A DNA stretch of 64,000 bases, taken from Pseudogymnoascus verrucosus. Lineage: Eukaryota. Made by a program: the position numbers and the translations under genes. The notes under the pieces are model-generated. The model saw nothing but the letters and a program-made list of their open reading frames with translations, ran no database searches and had not been told where the DNA came from. The stretch lies in assembly GCA_001662655.1 (NCBI GenBank), contig KV460213.1; one strand, written 5' to 3'. How positions within the stretch are numbered: position 1 is the first letter of the stretch; the number at the start of each line of letters is the position of its first letter. Below, piece after piece: positions 2,315 to 17,610 of the stretch.

Positions 2315-3097
2315 GAGGCACGTTTTCGACAAGGAACTTCGCCGACTTGTTTGCTGCCAAGTGATGCGCTTGGCCAATGAATACAGCTAGGATGCTAAGC
2401 GCTAGGGTTCCCCTGCCGCCGAAACTCTCCTGTAACACGGAGAGATGCGGCCAGATGTGATCCTTGACGAAACAAAACAAACATCGAACGTTTCCGAATT
2501 CCGTCTTGTGAATCCGAGAGGCTGGGAATGGTGTCGTCCTAATTACTGTAAGCTCTAGACTCAACAGCTCTAATGAAGCTTGAGCTATCAGCTTGCGCTT
2601 GCTAGTCGTTCCGCGTCGTTGAGAGCGTTCAATGCGCCGCCGTCGCTAATTCTTGGCAGATACCCACCAAACCTCGACAGCTGCCATAACAACTCGAAAT
2701 ATGAAGACGAGAGAGCCGCAAATACCGGAGCCTCAAGAGCTGAAGTGTAAACCATGCCGTAGCTCACCATCTTTAGTGATGGGAACACGATTGGTAGGAT
2801 AAAATCGAGAGGCCAGCAGTGTTGTTTTATGTGTGTCAAGGCTCCAGAATGTGGCGTTTATTCCATGCATCTCACGAGTTCTCACATCTAAAGCTGAATA
2901 TCATCCTTGAATGTGCATCAACGACACAGCCTTCTAACATGTTGGACTCTAAGATGTTTCGAAGCGAGAGCTTTGCCATGAAGTAAAAGTACAAATAGTG
3001 TAGAATGACCTTTCATTGTGTCCTAAATATTCTTCCTGGAGATATTCTTTGTGGAGCAGCCAGAACCAATATTAAATTTCACATCTTACATCTCACA

Positions 3098-4198
3098 ATG
3101 TCGGACACTACCAACAGTTCGCCTAGCTTTCCTACGCTATCTGATATTGGCGATGCCCTTTCTGATATCACCACTGCTGATTGGGAGTCAGCCATCCATC
3201 CTCCAACGCTATCTGGTATTGCAAAGGAGCTCTTGCTGGTTGAGGCTCACTACGCAACAGAAGAAGCTGGCCTTCGGAAACAAATCGAAGAATTGGAATC
3301 AACAGTCCGGCGCCAGGCTAAATCGATGGCCCGTCAAGATGTGATAATAAAGATTCAAGAAGAAGAAATGGAGTTACTAGATGGATTAATAAAGTCGCGA
3401 AACAAATCAATCGACGAAAAAAACGAAACAATAAAGAGGCAAGGCGAATGTATGAAAGTTTCTGATTCTCGAATTGCTACACTTCTCGGTCAATGGGACA
3501 CTCTTCAATCCAAGGGAGAACATCAATCGCCCTATCGGAACAAAATCATTTGTGTACCGATCCCTCCAAATTCGCTATCACATGAAGACTCTCCACTCTC
3601 TCACACACCTGGAACTGATTCCCTTTCAACTCCAAAGGCGGCTGTTGCAAGCTTTTTAGCTAGCCCTGCTTCAACTCTAATGCAGGTTAATCCATTTGCA
3701 ACCCCTTCAGTTAGCCCTGCATCAACTCCAGTGCAGATTGATGTATTCTCCGACAAAAGAGCAAACTCCCCAGCGAAGTCTATGTCAACTCTAGAGGCGG
3801 CCTTACACCCCTCCGTCAAACCTGTTGTGTCAACTCCAACAACAACTGCTAACACCCCCGCCATACTTTTACCAACTCCAAAGACTACTTTACCTACGCC
3901 AGACAAACTCGTTCCACCTCCAACGCCAAAGCAAAACGGCGAATCCAAGTTCTCATTTGGCAAGCCAGCCCCATTTTTCACATTCGGCGACCCAATTCCA
4001 GTTTCTCCATCTAAATTTGCTCGAGGTCTAAAGCCGCATCACACTCATACCCGCTCAAAATCAGCAGAGCTACGGGCCTCTCCAGCCATGTCCCCTTTCT
4101 CCTCTCGGAAACCCTTTGAGGAGTCTGAAGGCTGGAAGCCTGAGGATTGGAATAAATACTTGCGCTTTGGGCCACCTACCGCAGAGAACGTCTTCTGA
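3098..4198 (+). CDS. Hypothetical protein: N-terminal coiled coil, Pro/Ser/Thr-rich C-terminus
   Basis: Long intronless ORF. ATG at 3098 in CACAATG context is the likely start; alternative ATG at 3005. Confidence 0.65.
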   Translation: MSDTTNSSPSFPTLSDIGDALSDITTADWESAIHPPTLSGIAKELLLVEAHYATEEAGLRKQIEELESTVRRQAKSMARQDVIIKIQEEEMELLDGLIKSRNKSIDEKNETIKRQGECMKVSDSRIATLLGQWDTLQSKGEHQSPYRNKIICVPIPPNSLSHEDSPLSHTPGTDSLSTPKAAVASFLASPASTLMQVNPFATPSVSPASTPVQIDVFSDKRANSPAKSMSTLEAALHPSVKPVVSTPTTTANTPAILLPTPKTTLPTPDKLVPPPTPKQNGESKFSFGKPAPFFTFGDPIPVSPSKFARGLKPHHTHTRSKSAELRASPAMSPFSSRKPFEESEGWKPEDWNKYLRFGPPTAENVF

Positions 4199-8224: not shown

Positions 8225-9822
8225 ACGAGTAGAGATCAGCAAACTCGTGGAGCTCGCCATACGTTATATTGTAATAGATACTATGGCAATATTTCTCGTT
8301 TCTTTCATTGGTTTTTCATAGTCTGGCCAAGCAACGGGATATATTCATAATCTACTTTTCCATATTAAATTGATACCTATACTCTGCCTTATATTCCTCT
8401 ACGTTGCAAACTATAAGTTCCAGTATCTCGGGTATTCTCTGCTATGAGCATAAATAGTTTGTGCTGAGGGGCTAACTCGCTTTGCTCTGGTTGAGGTCGT
8501 TGCGCCAAAATTGCTGGTCGTGTCGCACTGAGCCTATCTCAGAGAAGGAGTGTGACTTGTGGAGAGATCCTCAGCACACGAGTGTGCCCCGAGAATGATT
8601 CCTCAATTAGCGGATCACAATAGTGGAATGCAGTATGAGAACCACCAGTTTCTTCAAATCTCCCGCGCGAGGTGTCTCTTCTGGAAGTAGCACCACCGTG
8701 TGAAAACCCCCAGTCCAACAACTTCCGATAGAAGCTAAGAACCCTAGATAAAGATCAACCACCTCTCGATATAGTGACTACCTATTTCAAAGGCGTCAGC
8801 CACACACAGCACCCATTGCCCCACTCTTGTAATCGCGTCGCCGGCAAACTAAATCTCCCTCCCAAGCACGGTACTCCTCCCACTCGACGGCGCGATCCCT
8901 CTCCGATAGCAGGAATCACAGTCCTGCGATTCGGCACGATCCCCTATAACCTTTGCCTTCTGTCTTCATTCTGCAAGTAATCGTCGGATCTGACTGCTCA
9001 CTTCCCTCACATGTTGTAGGTGTAAATACTAGGATATCCTTCTATGGCGCCACTACAAGCTTCCGTGGACGTCGACTTGTGATTCGTCAAATCTCCTCGG
9101 TGTACGGTTCCTCCTCTCTTCATCTGGACTCCATTCTTCAGGCCGAAAATTAGGGTTGCTGTAATGTGCAGTATTATAGTGACTATTTTTAAACATGCTT
9201 GTCTGGAAGATCTGTGACGATGGATCGTTCTAATCACTGTCGTACTCGTACTTTGAGTGCCGAAACTGGCTGCCCAAACTAGACAGAGGAACTTCAATGG
9301 GCTTCACCTGAAGATTGCGAGTGCGCTGTGGTCGTGATGGTGCGCTATGGATTGATAGCGCAGCAGCCGGGACGATTGGCGTGCTAGAGTTGTGAGGAGA
9401 TACCGCTAATATAGGTGGGACATACTGCATGTTTGGTGTCGACACTAATGTATCGAATGGATAGGTGGGTGTCACGATAGGCTCGTAGTCGCTGAGGGGG
9501 GTGTATGTCGAGGGAAAGCCATGATTACTCAGGGCTGCCATAGACAGGCCAGGTATGTCCACTGTACCGGGCAGGTTAGCCGGGTTAAAGTTGGTCATCG
9601 GCGATGAGTCCAGAGCACGATCGAAGACGCCAGCGCGGTTAACCTGGATATTACTAGCAGCGGACGCGCTATCGATAATCTTTTGCTGTCGTAGAGATCA
9701 GGAACCGTTGGTATACTTGTATAAGATATCATGCTGGCCCGGTAAAGCAGGCGAACGATGGGTCCAGTAGGGTTGATTGGGATGTCATTATCATCCTCGG
9801 CCCGGACAAGATGACTATTAAC

Positions 9823-9906
9823 GTACTTTCCTTGCAGGCGAAGCGCTACTGCGAGGTTGTTTATGCTGGCGAGCGTGCCTGGGTGATCCTTCCCGAGCAC
9901 CGTCTC
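9823..9906 (-). pseudogene. Single kinesin-light-chain-type TPR repeat, probable relic of a fungal NLR (NB-ARC/NACHT-TPR)
   Basis: ETVLGKDHPGTLASINNLAVALRLQGKY matches the LG.DHP.TL.S.NNLA..L..QG.Y TPR consensus of fungal NLRs. No NOD domain or further repeats nearby. Confidence 0.7.
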
Positions 9907-10167
9907 CGTGAGCAGCAGCACAGAAGGGTGCAATATTCTTAGCGGTCACCCTTCTTTCGTCTTTCTCCCCTTTAACCACAGTATTGAGTGCCATTTAACA
10001 TTCTAACAATACGATAGCTAATGTCACCACATAATGCAACTATCCTGACCAATTGTAGACTGTAGCTGAAGAAGCGCTGCGCATATCTAGCTCCGCAGCT
10101 GGTCATATTCGTGCAAAAGCAACGTCTGCTTTACTTCCACAAGCATAACAAAGATCTGTGAATGTTT

Positions 10168-11490
10168 TCACTCATGCGAACCTAGCTTTTCTGAAGCCAA
10201 TCTTCCTGGATTAAGCGGGCGTCCAGTTCCATAACGTCCTTCAAATGGGGAGTTACTCCCTGTAGACCTATCAACATCCACCTCTAATGGGCCGCGACTG
10301 ATCTTCTGTGAAAGCAGCTGAAGAGAAGTATCTGACATCTGTCCAAGGAATTGTCTCGATCTAGACCCAGTCGTCACGCGCTTCGCGGAGATCAGATCTC
10401 CAAAAGTTGCAACAATGATTTGATCACCATCGTCACCCATCAAGACATCTTCGAAGACATGTATTCGATCTGGAACTGCTTTCTCAGCTGCTTCTGAGCA
10501 GATTTTCAAACTTTGTTCAACGCTCCTTAATTCTTCTCTTATTCTTTCTTGCTCTATTGCCTGTTCGCCGGATGGAGTAAGAAGTTGCGAAGAGCTGCGC
10601 ATCTGCTCATTAATCCTGTGGAGCTGTTCTCTAAGCTGAGATGTGGTTTGGGCTAGGCCCAACTTGCAGTCAGTGAGAGTATTGTTCGTGACTGCTTCTG
10701 CTAGTGTAAATTTCTTGGACTCGGCCGCAGAGTCTTGATTGTTTGCTGATGTCCCAGCAGTGTTCACAAAAGCATTCTGTTGTACATCATCGATGTGTGC
10801 AGAAACTTGAATGCAGATATCTAAACAGCTCTGTGCACTTTCTCGCTCTTCTTTGATTCGTTGTTGCTCTAAATTATCCACATTGAATGCCTGAGCGCCT
10901 TGTGAAATAGCCTGTAGCTTCTCATCTAACTCTTGCAAGTGCTCTTTGAGATCAGAGGTGGTGTTTGCGATCATCGTATTATATTCATTTAGGAGAGAAA
11001 TCGTGACATTAGTCGTTCTTCTACAAAAATGTGTCAGCTATAGCTGATATCAGGAACCAAGACTGGACCAAACTAACATGTTGGCGTCACCAAGAGCAAT
11101 AGCAATTGTGGATTTATAGCCTCCTAGCATATTCTTAAATGCGTTAATATCACCGCCCATATAAGTTAGAGTAGTCCAGTCGCGAAGGCTCCTCCTTGTT
11201 CCACTGGAATGCTTCGTGCATTTTAGCACTATCGCTTCGAATTCTTGACAAGCCTGGTTACATCGAGTAAGAGGAAGTGTTAGCGATGTTAGGTCGACCT
11301 TTCCATTGCTGATAGTAGCATGGAGAGACTGCAGGACCTCATTTAAGGCTTCGAGTTCTTCTTTCAAGCCTCGTATAGTTCTTTGACTGCTTTTAAAGCT
11401 CGAGATTAACTGATGCAACGACTGTGTTGATTTAGCTGCAAACGTCACTAGCGCTAAAAGGCTAGCGGTAACGCTCAGTGGATCTGCCAT
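10168..11490 (-). CDS. HeLo-like / fungal N-terminal STAND-associated domain protein (PF17111, azaphilone cluster protein L-like)
   Basis: Starts MADPLSVTASLLALVTFA...RTIRGLKEELEAL. Intron 11077-11021 joins ...ALGDANI-RTTNVT... to the 268-aa ORF. Internal duplication QQRIKEERESAQSCLDIC / QERIREELRSVEQSLKIC. Confidence 0.85.
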
Positions 11491-13186
11491 TGTAGACAGC
11501 AAATGATAGTATACGGTAAGAGCGACCCTGTAGATATATACCTATGGTCATAACATGCCGACCAGGTGATGGGCACATCATCTTCAGCGAGCGGGGCTGT
11601 GCTACATTTGCCAGCCGCGCGGCTATCACGATGCGCCAGCGCTTATAAGATCTGTTCTCGGCTACAGATCCATAGGACCAAACACCGACACGAGCGTATA
11701 TTTATCTAGAATAGCATTCTCACGACCTCGGCTTGCTCCTCTGGCGCGCATCTCGCTTCCTCCAACCTTAAGTGAAGCGAGAAGTTGGATACGACGATTA
11801 GAGCTTTTAACACTACCTGCTGCTCGGTCACGGGAACTGCCCAGTGTCCGCTTAGTCATCAATGGGGCCGCAGAGTCGGTGGTCGGTGTCGTCCTTCCCG
11901 CCCGGCTTTGGACACTTCTCTAGACCCCGTCTACGCTCTGTTTGCTTGGCCTTCTCACCGTATCCTGGTGATCTTCTTAGTCGCGGTATATGCCATGACT
12001 CTTTCACCGTTTTCTTTTCTAGAACGGCCTTTTCTTACAAAGGCATCCTGCGGGATTTTTTACACGCCAAGATGTTGTTGTGTGGTTCAGTAATCCCACT
12101 TCGTGCACTCCAAACATTATACCCACCATCACTATTACTATTCTGTCACCGAGGCCATCCATCACCAACCCGCCGAACCCATCACCGAGGCACTCACTCA
12201 GTCACTTACTAGCTACCCCCACCACGGGAAGGCAGAAAAACCCACTATGGCTGGCAGTTAAACTACCATCGGATCATCGGAGTCTACCTTTCTTCTACTA
12301 TAGCCCCAGAACCATCCATCCACTCCCAATGCCGTCGGAGTATCAAAATTATCACGTGCCCCCTCCCCCCTAACAACCAGCGACCGAGCCGTAGTGGATG
12401 GATATGATCCCCACTACGGATCTTGGCAGGTGCGGTATCCGTTTACTACTGTACCATCCCATCACATCAGCCCTACATAAAGTGATATACATTGCATAAC
12501 CGGTAGTTATGCAATTAATGTGGGCAGCAGCGGGTAGCAGCCACCCATCATCACCTATATCCAGTTATCGGAGCGGGTGGTGGCGGGATCGACGTGGTCA
12601 TCAGAGCGAGTGGCAGGGTGGTGGTGGGTGGTGGTGGGTAGTGGCAGGGTGGTGATCGGGGATGATCGGGGTGATCTTTTTGGTAGTGGGTAGAAGGGGG
12701 GGTAAGGTAAGCGTATAGCGGGTTGACTGCCGGATGCGCGGGAGTTGTGTGGTGGTGGTGATGGGTTTTGTGGCTTGGGTTGATGGATGGCCGACTATAG
12801 GTGGTTATGTGCGAGGTGATTAGAGTGCCTAGAGTGCTTGTGTGCTTAGATGTGCATAGATAGTGGCTGCTTGATTGATGAGCTTGGTTGGTCTGGTCGT
12901 GTGTGTGCTGATTGATGGCAGGTGTAGTGTATTTTCATGGTTTACTACTACTAATCACTACTACTACTGCTTACATAGTTACAAAGTACACCGCATCCGT
13001 ACCCTTCCTTCTTCACTTTTGTGGCGAACAGACAGGACAAGGCAAGGCAAGGCAACAGTCTTCACAGTCGTTACAGCGCCAAGAGTGACGTATGATAAAG
13101 GGATTGAATTGTACTGGTTGGATCTTACGAGATGGGGGATTGGGCGTGTCTTACTAAGAATGGGATTGAGGGAATTGGCTGGCGAA

Positions 13187-13261: not shown

Positions 13262-15729
13262 GGTTGATGATGAATAGACGGTGTAGGATGAGGTGAGATG
13301 GCTGGATGATGGATGGAGCTCTACTGTGCTGTGTGGTGCTGTGGGTGTGGTGTGTAACCCTTGCTCTCGCTCCCCTCGTCCATCCTCGTCCATTCCCTTG
13401 TCCGTCCCCGTGCCCTTGTCTGTTTGAAGGATAGTCCGTACGTACGAAGAGTGGCAGCCTTACGCCTCTGGAGTACTACTGCTCTACTGGAGTACCCTTC
13501 ACCCTTCACTCTTCACCTCTAGATTACTCCCACCGCTCCACTGGAGTACCCCTGCACGTCTACAACTGGTATCCAAACAGAAGATGGAAGGGAGGGGGGG
13601 GTCGTGTCTTACTTGGAGATTCTTCGACGGGTCGAGTCGCACACTTGAAGATTGAAGATACTGTACTGTACTGCAGATGTATAATCCAGCTAAGCAAGTG
13701 GCGTTGGGCGGCTCTTTTCGGATCCCGGAGTTTAGGTAGGGGAGGTCTAGAGGTGGGGAAAGCGAATGCGAAAGAGAATGCGAAAGAGAAGAGACGAAAC
13801 TTGGAAATCCCCCTCTCGGCGCCGTTGGTCTGGCTCGGCGCGCCATTGAGAAATCTTTGTAAAAACCTCTACAATAAGACAAAGACAATTAATTTGTAAC
13901 TGCCGCCGGCACTTTCGGCATACCACGGAGCAAAACAAACAAATAGAATGGCTCCAACTGTCCTGTCAAACCCAGCCGTTTTTAATGATCCACACGCTAG
14001 ATCCACACTTCACTTTCCTCATGATCTTCAATCTTCTCTGGTGCTCGGCCGACAAGAGTAGTAGCTCGGGATTCGGCCGCCTATACTGACCGGAGAGTCG
14101 AGAGTCGAGAGTCGAGGTAACTGACATGCAGAACTGCTGTATGGGTAGGGTATGGTTAGTGGTATGGTTAGTCGAGAACTGGTAGAGTAGGCTATGACGG
14201 GTGCAGGGGTGTAGTACTGTAGGATGGATAGTTAGGGTACTCTGACGACAAGGGTACGGACTAAACAGACAGGGGTGCAGGAACTTTCAATTCACCCGAC
14301 CTCCGTGTCCGTGTCGGCGCCGAGGGAGAGGAGTGGGGTTTTAGTTGTGTTAGTGGCTATTAATGATGCTAGCTAAGGATGATGGTGGATGGTGATTGGC
14401 TAGATCTCTGGTAAGGAAGTTAGTAATTGTTTATGAAAGAGATTATACTAGAATGTGCTGAGATGTGTAAGTGTGGAGGTCCAAGCTTGTCGTTCCCTTT
14501 GTGGTTTAGTGGGGGTTAGTAAAGTCAGTTAGCTGGTGACTATCCTGCTGCCCAGACTGTACCTTAATCCCCTTTTAGCATTAGAAGGATTGCCATGACA
14601 TGTGTGTTACTTTTTAGGTGCACTTTTTAGGGGAACTACTTCCATGTTTACCCATCATTACACACACGGCTGTTTCCATGGCGTATATCCACGTATCCAT
14701 CGTATCCATCGTATTAGCCATCGTATCCACGCCTGTAGCACTAGAAGGAGAAGAAGAATACTTTCATGACAGGATAACAAACTACTACTTCCAGGGAAAA
14801 CTAACAGACTTCAGTCCTCGTGCACATATCAGCCTTCTACCTATCCATTCTTTGCCTTCATACTCTCTTTACTAACTACTACTATCCCTGCTTACCACTT
14901 ACTTTCTCTACTACTGTCCCTTCTCTCTTCCAACTATTCCAGCCTTTCCAACTACTGCGGCTGAACACCTGAACACCTGAACACTACCCTCCCACCAATC
15001 GACACCACCACACACACATATACACGAAAAGTACGACGATCTGGTTACCTGGTCTACCCTCCTACTACCACCCTGTTACTACACCTCCACAACTCCCCTG
15101 CTACTCAACCAACCTCTCGGCGTAATCATCCATGCGCCCCTGCACCTCCTCCACCTCCTCCACCTCCATCTACACCTATTTCCATCCAACGCCCCTGCTC
15201 TAGAGCCGCCTTTCCCCTCAAAACACACTCAATTATACCTCGCACCTTCGATCCACTCAGATACCCCTTCCACCCTGACAAAGCCCGGTGGTCATCACCC
15301 TGCTGCTACCTGCTACCAGAAAAAACTGACCTCAGACCGCCGACTTCTACCGTCCGCCTTCCCGCCTCCGTCCCCCGAATCTGCATGGAGCCCTTACATA
15401 TACATAGCTATGTAGAGCGAGCTATATCCCTCGCTCTGTGACCCGACCGGCCGCCTACGCACGCACGCCTTCCTATTATATACGACCCAATTCCCGTTGC
15501 TGGGCTCTCTGAACGAACGAGACAATATCAACTTCAGTGTCTCACCTCGAACACATCTCCCTCCCTCCCTTCCAACCTTCCCTTGCATTGCCTCGAAGGA
15601 TAACCCCGCAAGGAAGGGGCGAACCAATCCACCACACACTCGAAAACAAAACAAAACCACCCCGCAGGAAGGGGCAACCCATACCAAAAACCCAAAAAAC
15701 ATAAACAAACCACACCCCAAAAAAGGGCA

Positions 15730-17610
15730 ATGAACCTTCTACACCCCGGAGCCGGCCTCCACGGCCACGAATACTCCAAGAACGCACCCAAATCCCGCTC
15801 CCCATCACCGCGAATCACACTACACCGCTCACCCTTCTCCGCCCCCACGAAGACCACCTCGCAGCTAGACACCACACCCAGCAGGCCATCCCTCCGCACG
15901 ACGACGACGGGACAGTTCTCACCCACCAAGCCCCGCGATACCCCCGACCGCGTCGCCTTCCTCGACCCGGACTTTGACGAGGTCATGAGCGATGATGGGC
16001 GGTCGTGTGGGTACTCTGATGGTAGTGCTGCGGCGCGGGGGAGGTCGAAGAGGAAGGGGAGGCATAGGAGCACGTCGTATTACCTCGCGCACCCAGCGCC
16101 GACGTTGACGCAGAAGCAGAGGTTGTTGCATATTAGGCCGAAGTTGTTGTTGCAATTACAGCAGCTCTCGGCGGATGCACGGCCGCGCCCGATGGTGGAT
16201 GTGATTTCCTCGTCGACATTCGTGCCGAGGCTGTCGAAGAAATTCCCAAACTTATACAGGGGATCGGGAGAGCTAAAGATAAACGACGTTATGATTGTGA
16301 GGAGCGATGACTATGATGCTCTCGACGAGGATAAGGAGGTTGAATCTGTTGTGGAGGAAGCGGCGCGGGATAGGGACGTGTTGGCTGTTATATGTCAAGT
16401 CCCCAAAGGCGACCTAGGAACAGTCGAAATCTGCCTCGAAGACGGCTCACGCTGGACCGCCGGCCCTTCATCAAAGGGTGTACTGGAGCTCGTCAAAACG
16501 GACCCCCTAACCGGCGAACGCACGATCGGCCGCTGGGTGCCGAGAGGGACATCGAGACGGAATTCCCTCCAGACGCCTGCGAGGGGAGCAGCAGCCGCGG
16601 GAGGCGCGGAGCCAAGGTACCAGTTTAGTTTTATCGATCCGAGTACACGCCGCCATCCCATCCTGGCGACGTTGACGCAGGGTACGCTCAAGATCTCGGA
16701 TACGTACAGTCCCGTCGCCAATTCGGAGGAGGAGCACCCGCCTGTGTCGTCGAGGACGTCGTTGGATGGCGGGGAGCAGGGGGATAGCGATTCGAACGTG
16801 ACTGTGAGTGTGGATCGCAAGGTTCTCACAGTGTATGAGGAGCAGCGTCTACTCATCGAGGTCTCGGCGGTTTGGGTGGCGCTGAAGCAGGGGTGGTGTC
16901 CGTCGTTTAAGTATGGGGATTACTGCTCTCCTACTTCGTCGGGGAAATTCGCGACACCGTCTTCGTCGTCTACACCGTCGTCTAAGGGGGAGAGGCCGCG
17001 CTCGTTTTCGCTCACGCCTAGTGGTGCGGCGAGACATAGACGGAGTAGGAGTAACACCGTCACTTCCATCCCTGAATCGGTGGATAGCTCTACCGGGACG
17101 ACGCGCTCGCGGCGCGGCGTGTTTGCGAGGGCGACATTCAGCGCGAGTACCTTCTCCGCCGCTCTGGCCGAGTCGGAGGCTGGGTCTGGGGCAGGGAATA
17201 AACGCAACTCGGCCCCGCCCTCGGCGTTTCAGCAGCAACAGTTCAAACCCCCCGAACGCTCGTTCTCGAATGGAGCGGCGTTTATGCAGAAGGCTGCTAA
17301 GAAGAAGGCGGGGAGGCCGGCGAGTTCGAGTGGGAGTGAGGGGGTGAGGACGCCGGGGAGGGGGTCGTCGTTGGATATGGTGGAAGGGGGGGTGCTGGGT
17401 CCGGGGCTTGGCGTTGTGGGGAGGGAGGTCCCGGTGAAGGAACGGAGGAGGCCGGTGTCGGAGGTTGTGGGGAGGAGTATGGCGAGGGAGGTGGGTGGGA
17501 AGAAGACGCCGCCGCCGCCACCGGTGGTGAAGAAGGAGAAGGAGAAGGAGAATCGGAGGTTTAGTTCGATTATTAAGTTTTTTAGGAGGGGGAAGGGGGG
17601 GAGGAGTTGA
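15730..17610 (+). CDS. Conserved fungal hypothetical protein (626 aa)
   Basis: Long intronless ORF with globular-looking blocks (LHIRPKLLLQLQQLS..RPRPMVDV; YQFSFIDPSTRRHPILATL) between Ser/Arg-rich disordered regions. Confidence 0.8.
   Translation: MNLLHPGAGLHGHEYSKNAPKSRSPSPRITLHRSPFSAPTKTTSQLDTTPSRPSLRTTTTGQFSPTKPRDTPDRVAFLDPDFDEVMSDDGRSCGYSDGSAAARGRSKRKGRHRSTSYYLAHPAPTLTQKQRLLHIRPKLLLQLQQLSADARPRPMVDVISSSTFVPRLSKKFPNLYRGSGELKINDVMIVRSDDYDALDEDKEVESVVEEAARDRDVLAVICQVPKGDLGTVEICLEDGSRWTAGPSSKGVLELVKTDPLTGERTIGRWVPRGTSRRNSLQTPARGAAAAGGAEPRYQFSFIDPSTRRHPILATLTQGTLKISDTYSPVANSEEEHPPVSSRTSLDGGEQGDSDSNVTVSVDRKVLTVYEEQRLLIEVSAVWVALKQGWCPSFKYGDYCSPTSSGKFATPSSSSTPSSKGERPRSFSLTPSGAARHRRSRSNTVTSIPESVDSSTGTTRSRRGVFARATFSASTFSAALAESEAGSGAGNKRNSAPPSAFQQQQFKPPERSFSNGAAFMQKAAKKKAGRPASSSGSEGVRTPGRGSSLDMVEGGVLGPGLGVVGREVPVKERRRPVSEVVGRSMAREVGGKKTPPPPPVVKKEKEKENRRFSSIIKFFRRGKGGRS

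Follow-up and report, generated by a model that had tools for sequence, protein, structure and literature searches.

A predicted two-rung beta-solenoid with inter-rung salt bridges in a HeLo-like protein of Pseudogymnoascus verrucosus

The gene and the layout of its product

The gene lies on the minus strand of the 64-kb window of P. verrucosus DNA analysed here and, as read from the sequence, consists of two exons with a spliced product of 421 aa. Exon 1 (11078..11490, ATG at 11490) encodes aa 1-137 and two bases of codon 138; it is followed by a 57-nt intron (11021..11077) of the form GTTAGT...CTGAC...TGTAG, with the GTTAGT donor directly after 11078, and by exon 2 (10171..11020), which encodes aa 138-421 and ends at the stop codon 10168-10170. 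This spliced model is supported by the homologue P0003, which has the same length of 421 aa and is 91% identical across exon 2. In total, 69 homologues were found at E<=0.001, and carriers of the gene include animal pathogens such as Histoplasma and Blastomyces. Judged from the Pfam matches of the ORFs in the window and the flanking regions, the neighbours of the gene are housekeeping genes.

Exon 1 encodes the N-terminal part of a PigL_N / HeLo-like domain, starting with a hydrophobic helix, and matches Pfam PF17111 (E=3.1e-55; 187.2 bits against a cutoff of 27.2) with its residues 2-137 on profile positions 1-137 of 209. Exon 2 continues the match (E=2.5e-22, 79.7 bits), with its residues 1-69 on positions 139-208 of the same profile. 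The gathering score of PF17111 is exceeded, and 140 of the 144 members of our alignment A2 match the family too. The end of the domain, with the first C-L-x-I-C helix, comprises aa 139-207 (10813..11019, minus strand); in and after it, AF2 places helices at residues 2-40 and 47-89 in exon-2 numbering.

Two helical hairpins separate the HeLo-like domain from a pair of repeats, R1 and R2, that form the subject of this work. Within this region lies a degenerate first copy of the motif, made up of R1, the linker and the first eight residues of R2 (aa 220-249, 10687..10776, minus strand). It has decayed in P. verrucosus and is modelled by AF2 as a loop (pLDDT 52-67). Homologues retain a recognisable first copy that covers motif-HMM positions 2-34 some 105 aa upstream of the main motif, with the strongest match, E=4.1e-11, in locus L031. 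The last helix before the motif (aa 289-318, 10480..10569, minus strand; AF2 helix 151-180 in exon-2 numbering) carries a second C-x-x-I-C-type segment, SLKIC, and alignment A1 confirms the duplication of a helical segment ahead of the motif that had been noticed in the initial annotation. The tail of 55 aa after the motif is likewise as described there. A conserved C-terminal helix (aa 368-379, 10297..10332, minus strand; AF2 helix 230-241, pLDDT ~92) is predicted to pack against the side of the solenoid, and further downstream follows a conserved motif, F-x-G-R-[YH]-G-x-G-x-x-L (FEGRYGTGRPLN; aa 397-408, 10210..10245, minus strand), which is seen in alignments A1 and A2 and is modelled with a low pLDDT of ~50.

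Two predicted rungs in register

The two pseudo-repeats proposed in the initial annotation are both present on the minus strand as written: R1 is HVFEDVLMGDDGDQIIVAT (window positions 10461-10405, aa 325-343) and R2 is ISAKRVTTGSRSRQFLGQM (10392-10336, aa 348-366). The span given for them, 10336..10464, is right at its lower bound and reaches one codon too far at its upper bound, as R1 starts at 10461. Their offset of 23 residues and the linker FGDL are found in the translation, and in this protein the four opposite-charge pairs and the Q/Q, V/V and G/G identities are all in place. The predicted structural units are slightly longer. Rung 1, the acidic layer (RIHVFEDVLMGDDGDQIIVATFG; aa 323-345, 10399..10467, minus strand), contains R1, and rung 2, the basic layer (DLISAKRVTTGSRSRQFLGQMSD; aa 346-368, 10330..10398, minus strand), contains R2. 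As a sequence repeat the two barely rise above chance, since a profile-profile alignment of their columns chose the in-register solution but with P=0.01 and a probability of 4%; as a structural register, they are more than chance. Nearly all of the 46 motif positions are conserved, on both strand faces and across five ascomycete classes, and so is the inter-rung turn T-x-G-D-L (T in 142/142, G in 138/142, D in 130/142 and L in 141/142 rows).

The register itself can be read from covariation (MI-APC) among the 142 non-identical homologue motif rows of alignment A2. Averaged by separation, MI-APC stands at 0.051 for 23 residues and does not exceed 0.012 for any of the 35 others tested; five of the 15 top pairs are 23 apart, a separation shared by only 24 of the 861 pairs (hypergeometric p=2.7e-5), and the pairs 11-34, 14-37, 13-36, 8-31 and 17-40, all of separation 23, make up half of the ten top long-range pairs. 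Charges are anticorrelated at 14-37 (r=-0.60) and 8-31 (r=-0.59). A full swap from D/R to R/D is seen at 8/31 in P0162 and P0209 and at 14/37 in P0151 and P0199; the carriers share 37% and 27% mutual identity and the closer relatives of each retain D/R. The four swaps are independent of one another. In about eight rows the 14/37 pair is neutral on both sides. The register and charge complementarity put forward in the initial annotation are thus borne out among homologues by the peak at separation 23 and by the swaps. Three of its four opposite-charge pairs hold across the family, one of the E/K type (129/142) and two of the D/R type (112/142 and 119/142), whereas the fourth, D13/R13, is oppositely charged in just 7 of the 142 rows (DR in five, ER in two). 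In full-length numbering the D/R pairs are aa 329/352 and 335/358. Beyond the two rungs, column 53 of the motif, in the C-terminal helix, shows covariation with both members of an in-register pair, columns 18 and 41.

Structure prediction gives the same arrangement. With 144 sequences AF2 reached a mean pLDDT of 78.7 (76-94 for residues 181-240 in exon-2 numbering), and the three-strand pattern 186-190, 193-194 and 199-204 of rung 1 recurs 23 residues on as 209-213, 216-217 and 222-227 in rung 2, followed by the helix 230-241; with 18 sequences the pLDDT of the motif region was ~30. An alignment-free ESMFold2 run with four copies of residues 178-246 yielded a continuous in-register stack with a score of 0.65, the best of three controls scoring 0.00. 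In this tetramer rung 2 of a chain lies in register against rung 1 of its neighbour, and the interchain contacts of lowest predicted error all have an offset of 23 (210-187, 212-189, 215-192, 218-195, 219-196, 220-197, 222-199, 223-200 and 227-204). Contact agreement between runs was at least 90%, and partner pLDDT was at least 79. Of 30 proteins solved as same-chain pairs, 21 attained the mark that was reached here, and of 23 solved as single chains none did; among eukaryotic proteins it was reached by 17 of 29, yet by only one of the seven that have no older solved relative, and by none of 30 single chains. These counts hold roughly, as the calibration used two copies rather than four, and the stacking score may reflect a memory of solved HET-s fibrils. 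In structural searches, Foldseek with the whole exon-2 model gave no PDB match at E<=0.001, the rows of a wide VIA-align search with that model fell nearly all on the helical hairpins of residues 1-96 and not on the beta part, and the named clusters of the ESM Atlas gave no usable match to residues 178-250. At the level of computation, the module's register, its salt-bridge contacts and its predicted fold are shown.

A stacking module or a soluble domain

The explanation that we favour, and to which we would give an even chance, is that a charge-zipped two-rung beta-solenoid stacks on itself to assemble a HeLo-like effector, and that the protein represents a new HET-s-like family that is not linked to NLRs. 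The 46 residues aa 323-368 would form a parallel, in-register solenoid with 23 residues and three short strands per rung, zipped together by E/K, D/R and D/R salt bridges, a Q/Q ladder and a small hydrophobic core (F/A, V/V, x/A and I/L), with the conserved helix running along one side. Rung 1, on the upper face of a molecule, would exactly complement rung 2 on the lower face of another. Given such complementary faces, head-to-tail stacking into an open-ended, HET-s-fibril-like polymer is possible, and the predicted tetramer suggests that the module may polymerise in this way. Such a polymer would cluster the N-terminal PigL_N/HeLo-like helical domains, which are of the MLKL type, for membrane attack or some other oligomer-dependent action; by analogy, the HeLo-like protein may function in cell death.

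A soluble domain is the strongest competitor of this explanation, although we consider it less probable. The two rungs could form a stable solenoid whose cap is the helix ahead of it, the C-terminal helix or the degenerate first copy, and could serve as a fixed docking module or build finite oligomers such as a dimer or a ring, never an open-ended amyloid or a prion. The covariation and the predicted folds are equally compatible with a capped soluble domain and with a fibril. The extreme conservation of nearly all 46 positions across five classes is unusual for a signalling amyloid motif and fits a folded domain with fixed partners; the tight, conserved T-x-G-D-L turn, the confident AF2 prediction of the monomer, the covariation of the flanking helix with the solenoid (41-53 and 18-53), the housekeeping gene neighbours and the lack of a linked NLR in our searches point in the same direction. 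On the other hand, two rungs would be a small number for a solenoid that stands on its own, and both open faces are exact electrostatic complements of each other. In the four-copy prediction the stack is continuous, and the helices, which touch those of neighbouring copies, lie beside it and leave the ends uncapped. The pTM of the AF2 model with 144 sequences is just 0.45, so that no capping arrangement is predicted with confidence.

Relation to HET-s-like motifs and to NLR receptors

HRAM1-5 are HET-s-related amyloid motifs, described by Daskalov, Dyrka and Saupe in 2015 (PMC4518210). Like HET-s and the HRAM proteins, the protein described here has two pseudo-repeats C-terminal to a HeLo-type domain (PF17111 in this case), a covariation pattern consistent with parallel in-register stacking (separation 23, p=2.7e-5, with charge complementarity) and an aromatic/glycine motif further downstream. 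The inter-repeat charge complementarity falls on HRAM frame positions 6, 7, 12 and 13 and the putative hydrophobic core on positions 5, 8, 10 and 18, with a Q at 16 as in HRAM5, the only HRAM family for which PMC4518210 reports it, and a G at 19 of the second repeat. At positions where hydrophobic residues are expected in HRAMs, the module has F/A (5), V/V (8), mixed/A or T (10), Q/Q (16) and I/L (18). The differences are equally clear. HRAM repeats are 21 residues long and are joined by a variable loop, of 6-18 residues in 154 of 155 cases and of two residues in the remaining one (PMC4518210), whereas here the period is 23 and the rungs are joined by a conserved turn of 2-4 residues (two in the 21-residue frame, four between R1 and R2). 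The glycine expected at position 19 of both repeats occurs in R2 in 141 of 142 rows but in R1 in none (V in 131, I in seven and A in four), and there is no preference for R/K at position 15. The repeats (aa 323-345 and 346-368) are nearly invariant across classes and, although C-terminal, end 55 aa before the C-terminus, being followed by a helix and the 55-aa tail; the protein is 421 aa long, and two helical hairpins separate its HeLo-like domain from the motif.

Profile searches agree with this mixed picture. PF11558, the HET-s_218-289 profile with which the initial annotation had proposed a comparison, was not matched: no Pfam family was found at E<=10 for C-terminal pieces of 104 and 63 aa, and PF11558 is absent from the 25 families most often matched by the members of alignment A2, although only 38 of the 155 HRAM proteins match it themselves according to PMC4518210. 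In the reading of the module as an atypical HRAM, what stands is a two-layer parallel in-register stack with inter-layer salt bridges in a PF17111 HeLo-like protein, as supported by covariation, AF2 and ESMFold2; what is missing is the R1 glycine at position 19, a long variable loop and the PF11558 match, and the searches gave no partner NLR with an r0 rung. With the structural core supported and several defining HRAM features missing, it is plausible that the module works like HET-s, whereas its being an HRAM is not established.

The search for an NLR with a matching motif covered the window, 34 related loci and the protein databases, and returned none. None of the 77 ORFs scanned in the 64-kb window encodes a NACHT or NB-ARC domain, and no second copy of the motif was found there. 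In the protein databases the motif was at the N-terminus of a long protein in none of the 150 representatives listed, and a word search of proteins of 497-2000 aa gave, among 15 candidates, just two mis-fused models of the same gene. The flank scan took in loci of 6 kb or longer, whose non-redundant ORFs of at least 230 aa number 137; 94 were searched against Pfam, the other 43 being ORFs of the query gene, ORFs overlapping a submitted one on another frame or strand, or near-identical ORFs from sister contigs. One of the 34 related loci that span 6 kb or more (L041) has an adjacent NLR, with a lipase-like N-terminus and without the motif. In a further explanation, improbable in our view, the module would be a classical NLR-templated amyloid motif whose partner NLR, with just one r0 rung, lies at another place in the genome. 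Only 98 of the 155 HRAM proteins have an adjacent NLR (PMC4518210), so that linkage is common but not obligatory, and a lone rung of 21-23 residues would be too short to be detected by the database searches used. Against such a distant partner, HMMs of rung 1 only and of rung 2 only, run over 643,587 bases of related loci, matched nothing significantly but PigL_N-type paralogues, their strongest matches off the gene having E=0.16-0.48 over 11 residues, and the motif is near-invariant and lacks the diversification that PMC4518210 attributes to co-evolution with NLRs. A linked NLR that acts by amyloid templating is probably not the trigger. A lone blade of the WD40 type, with four antiparallel strands in a meander rather than a parallel two-layer stack, is suggested by the only PDB sequence matches at E<=10 (19 sequences, all RACK1 and none a HET-s chain, one blade with 48 residues aligned at a non-significant E=0.39-1.5), and we reject it as highly improbable because covarying pairs keep a constant separation where an antiparallel hairpin gives a constant sum (the best antiparallel diagonal of at least 15 pairs has a mean of 0.018 versus 0.051 at separation 23, and one four-pair diagonal 0.035), because Pfam WD40 (PF00400) is unmatched at E<=10 and because AF2 and ESMFold2 both predict in-register stacking.

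MLKL consists of a four-helix bundle, a brace and a regulatory domain, a pseudokinase. The protein described here resembles it in having an N-terminal helical executioner-type domain, helical linkers and a C-terminal module that would control oligomerisation, although this module is a predicted beta-solenoid of 46 residues instead of a pseudokinase; HeLo-like domains have indeed been linked to MLKL (PMC9815663, PMC12881547). The HELLP/PP, sigma and PUASM motifs are likewise short assembly motifs, found at the C-terminus of proteins with HeLo-like or other effector domains, and PF17111 is treated as a HeLo-like domain carrying C-terminal amyloid motifs (PMC9815663). Unlike the present module, for which no NLR pairing was found, those motifs owe their definition to a pairing with the N-terminus of an NLR encoded no more than 20 kb away. 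That screen examined C-termini of 10-150 aa after the effector domain, and that of PMC4518210 was restricted to proteins shorter than 310 aa, of which it took the final 80 aa. A protein of 421 aa with a long region after its domain lies outside these length filters, and the family escaped both screens because such long regions were excluded. The signature GQMSD is absent from the 11 searchable supplementary files of PMC9815663, and GQMSD, LGQMSD and WLGQMS are absent from the supplements of PMC4518210 that were checked and occur literature-wide in one unrelated paper only. No description of the module was found in the accessible literature on HeLo-like domains, solenoids and AlphaFold, and the accessible part of a deep-learning paper on amyloid signalling motifs (PMC12261475) does not mention it.

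To the best of our knowledge, every fungal amyloid signalling motif known to date came to light because it is paired with an NLR receptor. A further-reaching and more doubtful proposal is that the self-stacking module represents a sixth, NLR-independent family of fungal beta-solenoid functional amyloids, a near-invariant, continuous 'charge zipper' with 23-residue rungs ranging from Orbiliomycetes to Eurotiomycetes, which would polymerise head-to-tail, possibly with prion-like self-templating, to activate an MLKL-like executioner, and in which an intramolecular cap, provided by the degenerate half-copy upstream or by the flanking helix, would hold the switch in its off state. If self-stacking is the correct explanation, beta-solenoid assembly of the HET-s type would not be limited to fast-evolving allorecognition or immune gene pairs and would also be used by an ancient, conserved and mostly single-gene HeLo-like protein of many ascomycetes. 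The module would then be a natural solenoid of two rungs, compact and lacking a flexible loop, its register set by salt bridges, and one would have to ask how an MLKL-like protein that has no linked receptor is triggered.

The gene and its family

The gene is on the minus strand and, read from the ATG at 11490 through a 57-nt intron (GTTAGT...TGTAG, 11077-11021) to the stop codon at 10168-10170, gives a spliced product of 421 aa. Among full-length homologues the nearest, P0003 (Pseudogymnoascus sp.), likewise has 421 aa and is 91% identical across exon 2. The N-terminus carries the PigL_N domain (Pfam PF17111; E=3.1e-55 for exon 1, 2.5e-22 for exon 2), termed HeLo-like in the available text of PMC9815663, and C-terminal pieces of 104 and 63 residues matched no Pfam family even at E<=10. 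The spliced translation contains the two 19-residue repeats, R1 (HVFEDVLMGDDGDQIIVAT; aa 325-343, window 10461-10405, minus strand) and R2 (ISAKRVTTGSRSRQFLGQM; aa 348-366, window 10392-10336, minus strand), in the layout proposed by the initial annotation: an offset of 23, the linker FGDL, V/V, Q/Q and G/G identities, a duplicated helical segment before the motif and a tail of 55 aa after it. About 30 residues past the following helix, in a stretch of low-confidence prediction, the tail motif F-x-G-R-[YH]-G-x-G-x-x-L (window 10210-10245, minus strand) is conserved from Orbiliomycetes to Leotiomycetes. Two annotated proteins deviate. In P0002 (552 aa), a public gene model, the conserved tail is missing because the C-terminus of the gene is spliced into a downstream TPR fragment (window 9598-9945). 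The Pseudogymnoascus destructans homologue P0064, annotated at 193 aa only, lacks the beta-solenoid module because it stops within the first helical repeat, which may reflect a truncation, a pseudogene or a faulty annotation.

A word-indexed protein search returned 69 homologues (155-496 aa, E<=0.001), which by their source names come from Leotiomycetes, Dothideomycetes, Eurotiomycetes (Histoplasma, Blastomyces, Microsporum), Orbiliomycetes and one lichen fungus. Exhaustive phmmer with a 63-aa motif query gave 339 cluster representatives at E<=0.001, 84 of them at E<=1e-10. In the 150 matches listed of these 339, some of which are short fragments, the motif mostly lies ~40-100 residues from the end of ~250-430-aa proteins; the shorter proteins among the matches listed are gene calls covering exon 2 only, and the sole long one, P0078 (867 aa), is fused by read-through to a downstream gene. 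The R1+R2 block is the best-conserved portion of the protein: across 142 non-identical rows a single residue dominates most of its 46 columns, with T22 (142/142) and L26, G43 and D47 (141/142 each) near-invariant.

Register and predicted stacking of the two rungs

Covariation was measured as mutual information with APC correction over 60 motif columns of alignment A2 (144 sequences). The proposal that R1 and R2 positions stack in register was supported: mean MI-APC is 0.051 at separation 23, and none of the 35 remaining separations in the range 6-41 exceeds 0.012. The strongest long-range pairs (11-34, 14-37, 13-36, 8-31 and 17-40) all have separation 23, which accounts for 5 of the 15 top pairs and for 24 of the 861 pairs overall (p=2.7e-5, hypergeometric); separations 22 or 24 supply another four of the top 15. 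Charges are anticorrelated at 14-37 (r=-0.60), 8-31 (-0.59), 10-33 (-0.32) and 16-39 (-0.31). Joint residue counts are DR 100, DK 9, EK 2, ER 1 and RD 2 at 8/31, and DR 113, ER 4, DK 1, EK 1 and RD 2, with ~8 neutral/neutral, at 14/37. The full swaps to RD occur in P0162 and P0209 (8/31) and in P0151 and P0199 (14/37), with identities between carriers of 37% and 27%, and look like four independent events, since each carrier has closer relatives keeping D/R. All four charge pairs read initially (E/K, D/R, D/R, D/R) exist in the window protein, and in the homologues the E/K pair is oppositely charged in 129/142 rows, as many as keep the Q/Q ladder; the fourth pair, at position 13 of the repeats as first described, does not generalize, being oppositely charged in only 7/142 rows (DR 5, ER 2). 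One position of the helix after the motif, column 53, covaries with columns 41 (0.202) and 18 (0.099); these are in-register partners, and the helix therefore runs along the side of the stack.

With 18 sequences, AF2 placed residues 318-421 at pLDDT ~30. With 144 sequences, the exon-2 protein (exon-2 numbering for the rest of this paragraph; adding 138 gives full-length positions) reached a mean pLDDT of 78.7 and pTM of 0.45, with pLDDT 76-94 over residues 181-240 and ~50 in the tail. DSSP assigns strands 186-190, 193-194 and 199-204 and, in the same pattern shifted by 23, strands 209-213, 216-217 and 222-227, followed by a helix at 230-241. ESMFold2, given four copies of residues 178-246 without an alignment, supported binding (score 0.65; best of three controls, 0.00). 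Its mark was reached by 21/30 proteins solved as pairs of one chain and 0/23 single chains and, for eukaryotes, by 17/29, by 1/7 of those without an older solved relative and by 0/30 single chains, counts that are only rough for four copies because the calibration used two. The runs share at least 90% of contacts, with partner pLDDT of at least 79. Rung 2 of one copy (209-229) packs against rung 1 of the next (185-208), neighbouring helices are also in contact, and the lowest-error inter-copy pairs are all offset by 23 (210-187, 212-189, 215-192, 218-195, 219-196, 220-197, 222-199, 223-200 and 227-204). As a matter of model confidence rather than measurement, the four copies are predicted to stack head-to-tail and in register, as in HET-s fibrils, and the prediction may in part reproduce HET-s fibril structures already known to the model.

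On these computations, the register, the salt bridges and a two-rung solenoid are very probably correct. The complementary open faces and the four-copy model suggest that the module might also polymerise, to which we give an even chance. The extreme conservation of the motif and its setting among housekeeping genes (Stu2, Blm10/PSME4, PIG-V mannosyltransferase, MYST acetyltransferase, carbonic anhydrase and L7Ae) agree just as well with a stable oligomerisation domain.

Paralogues and the search for a partner NLR

The motif HMM matched only the gene itself in the 64-kb window (E=8.9e-32; next best, E=0.72), and no NACHT or NB-ARC domain was found in 77 window ORFs (18 of >=110 aa in 1-26 kb; 59 of >=40 aa in 8.1-10.2 kb or >=170 aa in 26-64 kb). 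A motif-restricted word search of proteins of 497-2000 aa gave two matches among 15 candidates, both mis-fused models of the same gene, and rung-only HMMs found nothing significant elsewhere in 80 related metagenome loci (643,587 bases; 34 loci >=6 kb). Of the flanking ORFs, 94 were compared with Pfam, and one of these, L041:11773-16185 (minus strand), is an NLR with a lipase-like N-terminus, NPHP3_N NACHT, winged helix and WD40 repeats; it is convergent to the homologue and ~500 bp away, in this one locus only, and carries no motif, N-terminus included. An unlinked partner NLR could still exist, since the database searches would miss anything as short as a single rung. An isolated TPR_10/TPR_12-like repeat (window 9598-9945, minus strand; E=2.1e-06 and 1.1e-04), 200-600 bp downstream of the stop codon on the same strand, looks like what remains of a TPR array of the NLR type, with neither an NB-ARC nor a NACHT fragment found nearby. 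No Pfam family was matched at E<=0.001 by the long open frames at 15604-17610 (plus strand, 668 aa) and 2999-4198 (plus strand, 399 aa).

Several homologues (including P0074, P0076, P0092, P0098, P0113, P0156 and P0167) have, immediately C-terminal to the first C-L-x-I-C helix, an upstream copy of R1 and the linker that extends 8-10 residues into R2, so the duplicated unit is a helical hairpin plus R1 and half of R2. The motif HMM detects this copy in many related loci (HMM positions 2-34, ~105 aa upstream; best E=4.1e-11, in L031), and in the window protein it is decayed (aa 220-249). Neither R1 nor R2 is a recent copy of the other, with which their weak profile alignment is consistent (P=0.01, probability 4%; the in-register alignment is the best local one). 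Extra motif copies in the 80 loci occur only in adjoining PigL_N-type paralogues (L018/L019/L065, L075/L077, L073 and L056). In some fungi divergent paralogues cluster around the conserved gene, as in L018 at 8255-9686 (minus), 11765-12388 (plus) and 12612-13028 (minus), and likewise in L019, L065, L075 and L077. Some clustered paralogues appear little more than helix plus motif, and their charged positions are lost or altered on both rungs together, as in the variant ...VIDNYATGDAVQFMVSTNGNILHGTNRGLGWRTRQVGGHLSD... In the predicted 198-aa protein P0200, two complete motifs stand in tandem at a spacing of ~71 residues, and a PigL_N domain is not evident; residues 152-198 of the mis-fused model P0001 hold a paralogue's motif with an inter-rung linker two residues longer (ST-ATRGNP-IT) and D/N as its second D/R pair.

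Resemblance to HET-s-related motifs

All 19 PDB sequence matches at E<=10 were RACK1 WD40 blades (E=0.39-1.5), with no HET-s chain among them. An antiparallel WD40-like model, tested because of this resemblance, is rejected by the covariation pattern, in which constant-sum diagonals are weak (the best with at least 15 pairs averages 0.018; one 4-pair diagonal, 0.035).

For comparison with the HET-s-related amyloid motif (HRAM), the G of LGQM was set as position 19, giving R2 as DLISAKRVTTGSRSRQFLGQM and R1 as RIHVFEDVLMGDDGDQIIVAT. Against the available text of PMC4518210, the hydrophobic core fits in part, at positions 5 (R1/R2, F/A), 8 (V/V), 10 (mixed in R1, A or T in R2) and 18 (I/L); position 16 is Q/Q, Q being reported for HRAM5, and position 3, in R1 only, is N in 125/142 rows, as in canonical HET-s. 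Charged or covarying pairs lie at positions 6, 7, 12 and 13, all of them on the HRAM list of that text (4, 6, 7, 11, 12 and 13). The tail motif loosely recalls the aromatic/diglycine segment past r2, the second repeat of HRAM proteins. Unlike HRAMs, the family has V at position 19 of R1 in 131/142 rows, and never G, and shows no R/K preference at position 15; the inter-repeat loop is two conserved residues, whereas 154/155 proteins in the same text have 6-18 non-conserved ones, and the 421-aa protein continues after R2 with a helix and tail, unlike the HRAM description.

No description of this module was found in the literature searched, where GQMSD-type strings occur only in an unrelated context; they are absent from the searchable supplements of PMC4518210 and PMC9815663. 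The length filters of both published screens, as given in their available text, exclude this family. By analogy with HET-S, HELLP and MLKL, as presented in the available text of PMC9815663 and PMC12881547, the module would activate the HeLo-like domain for membrane attack.
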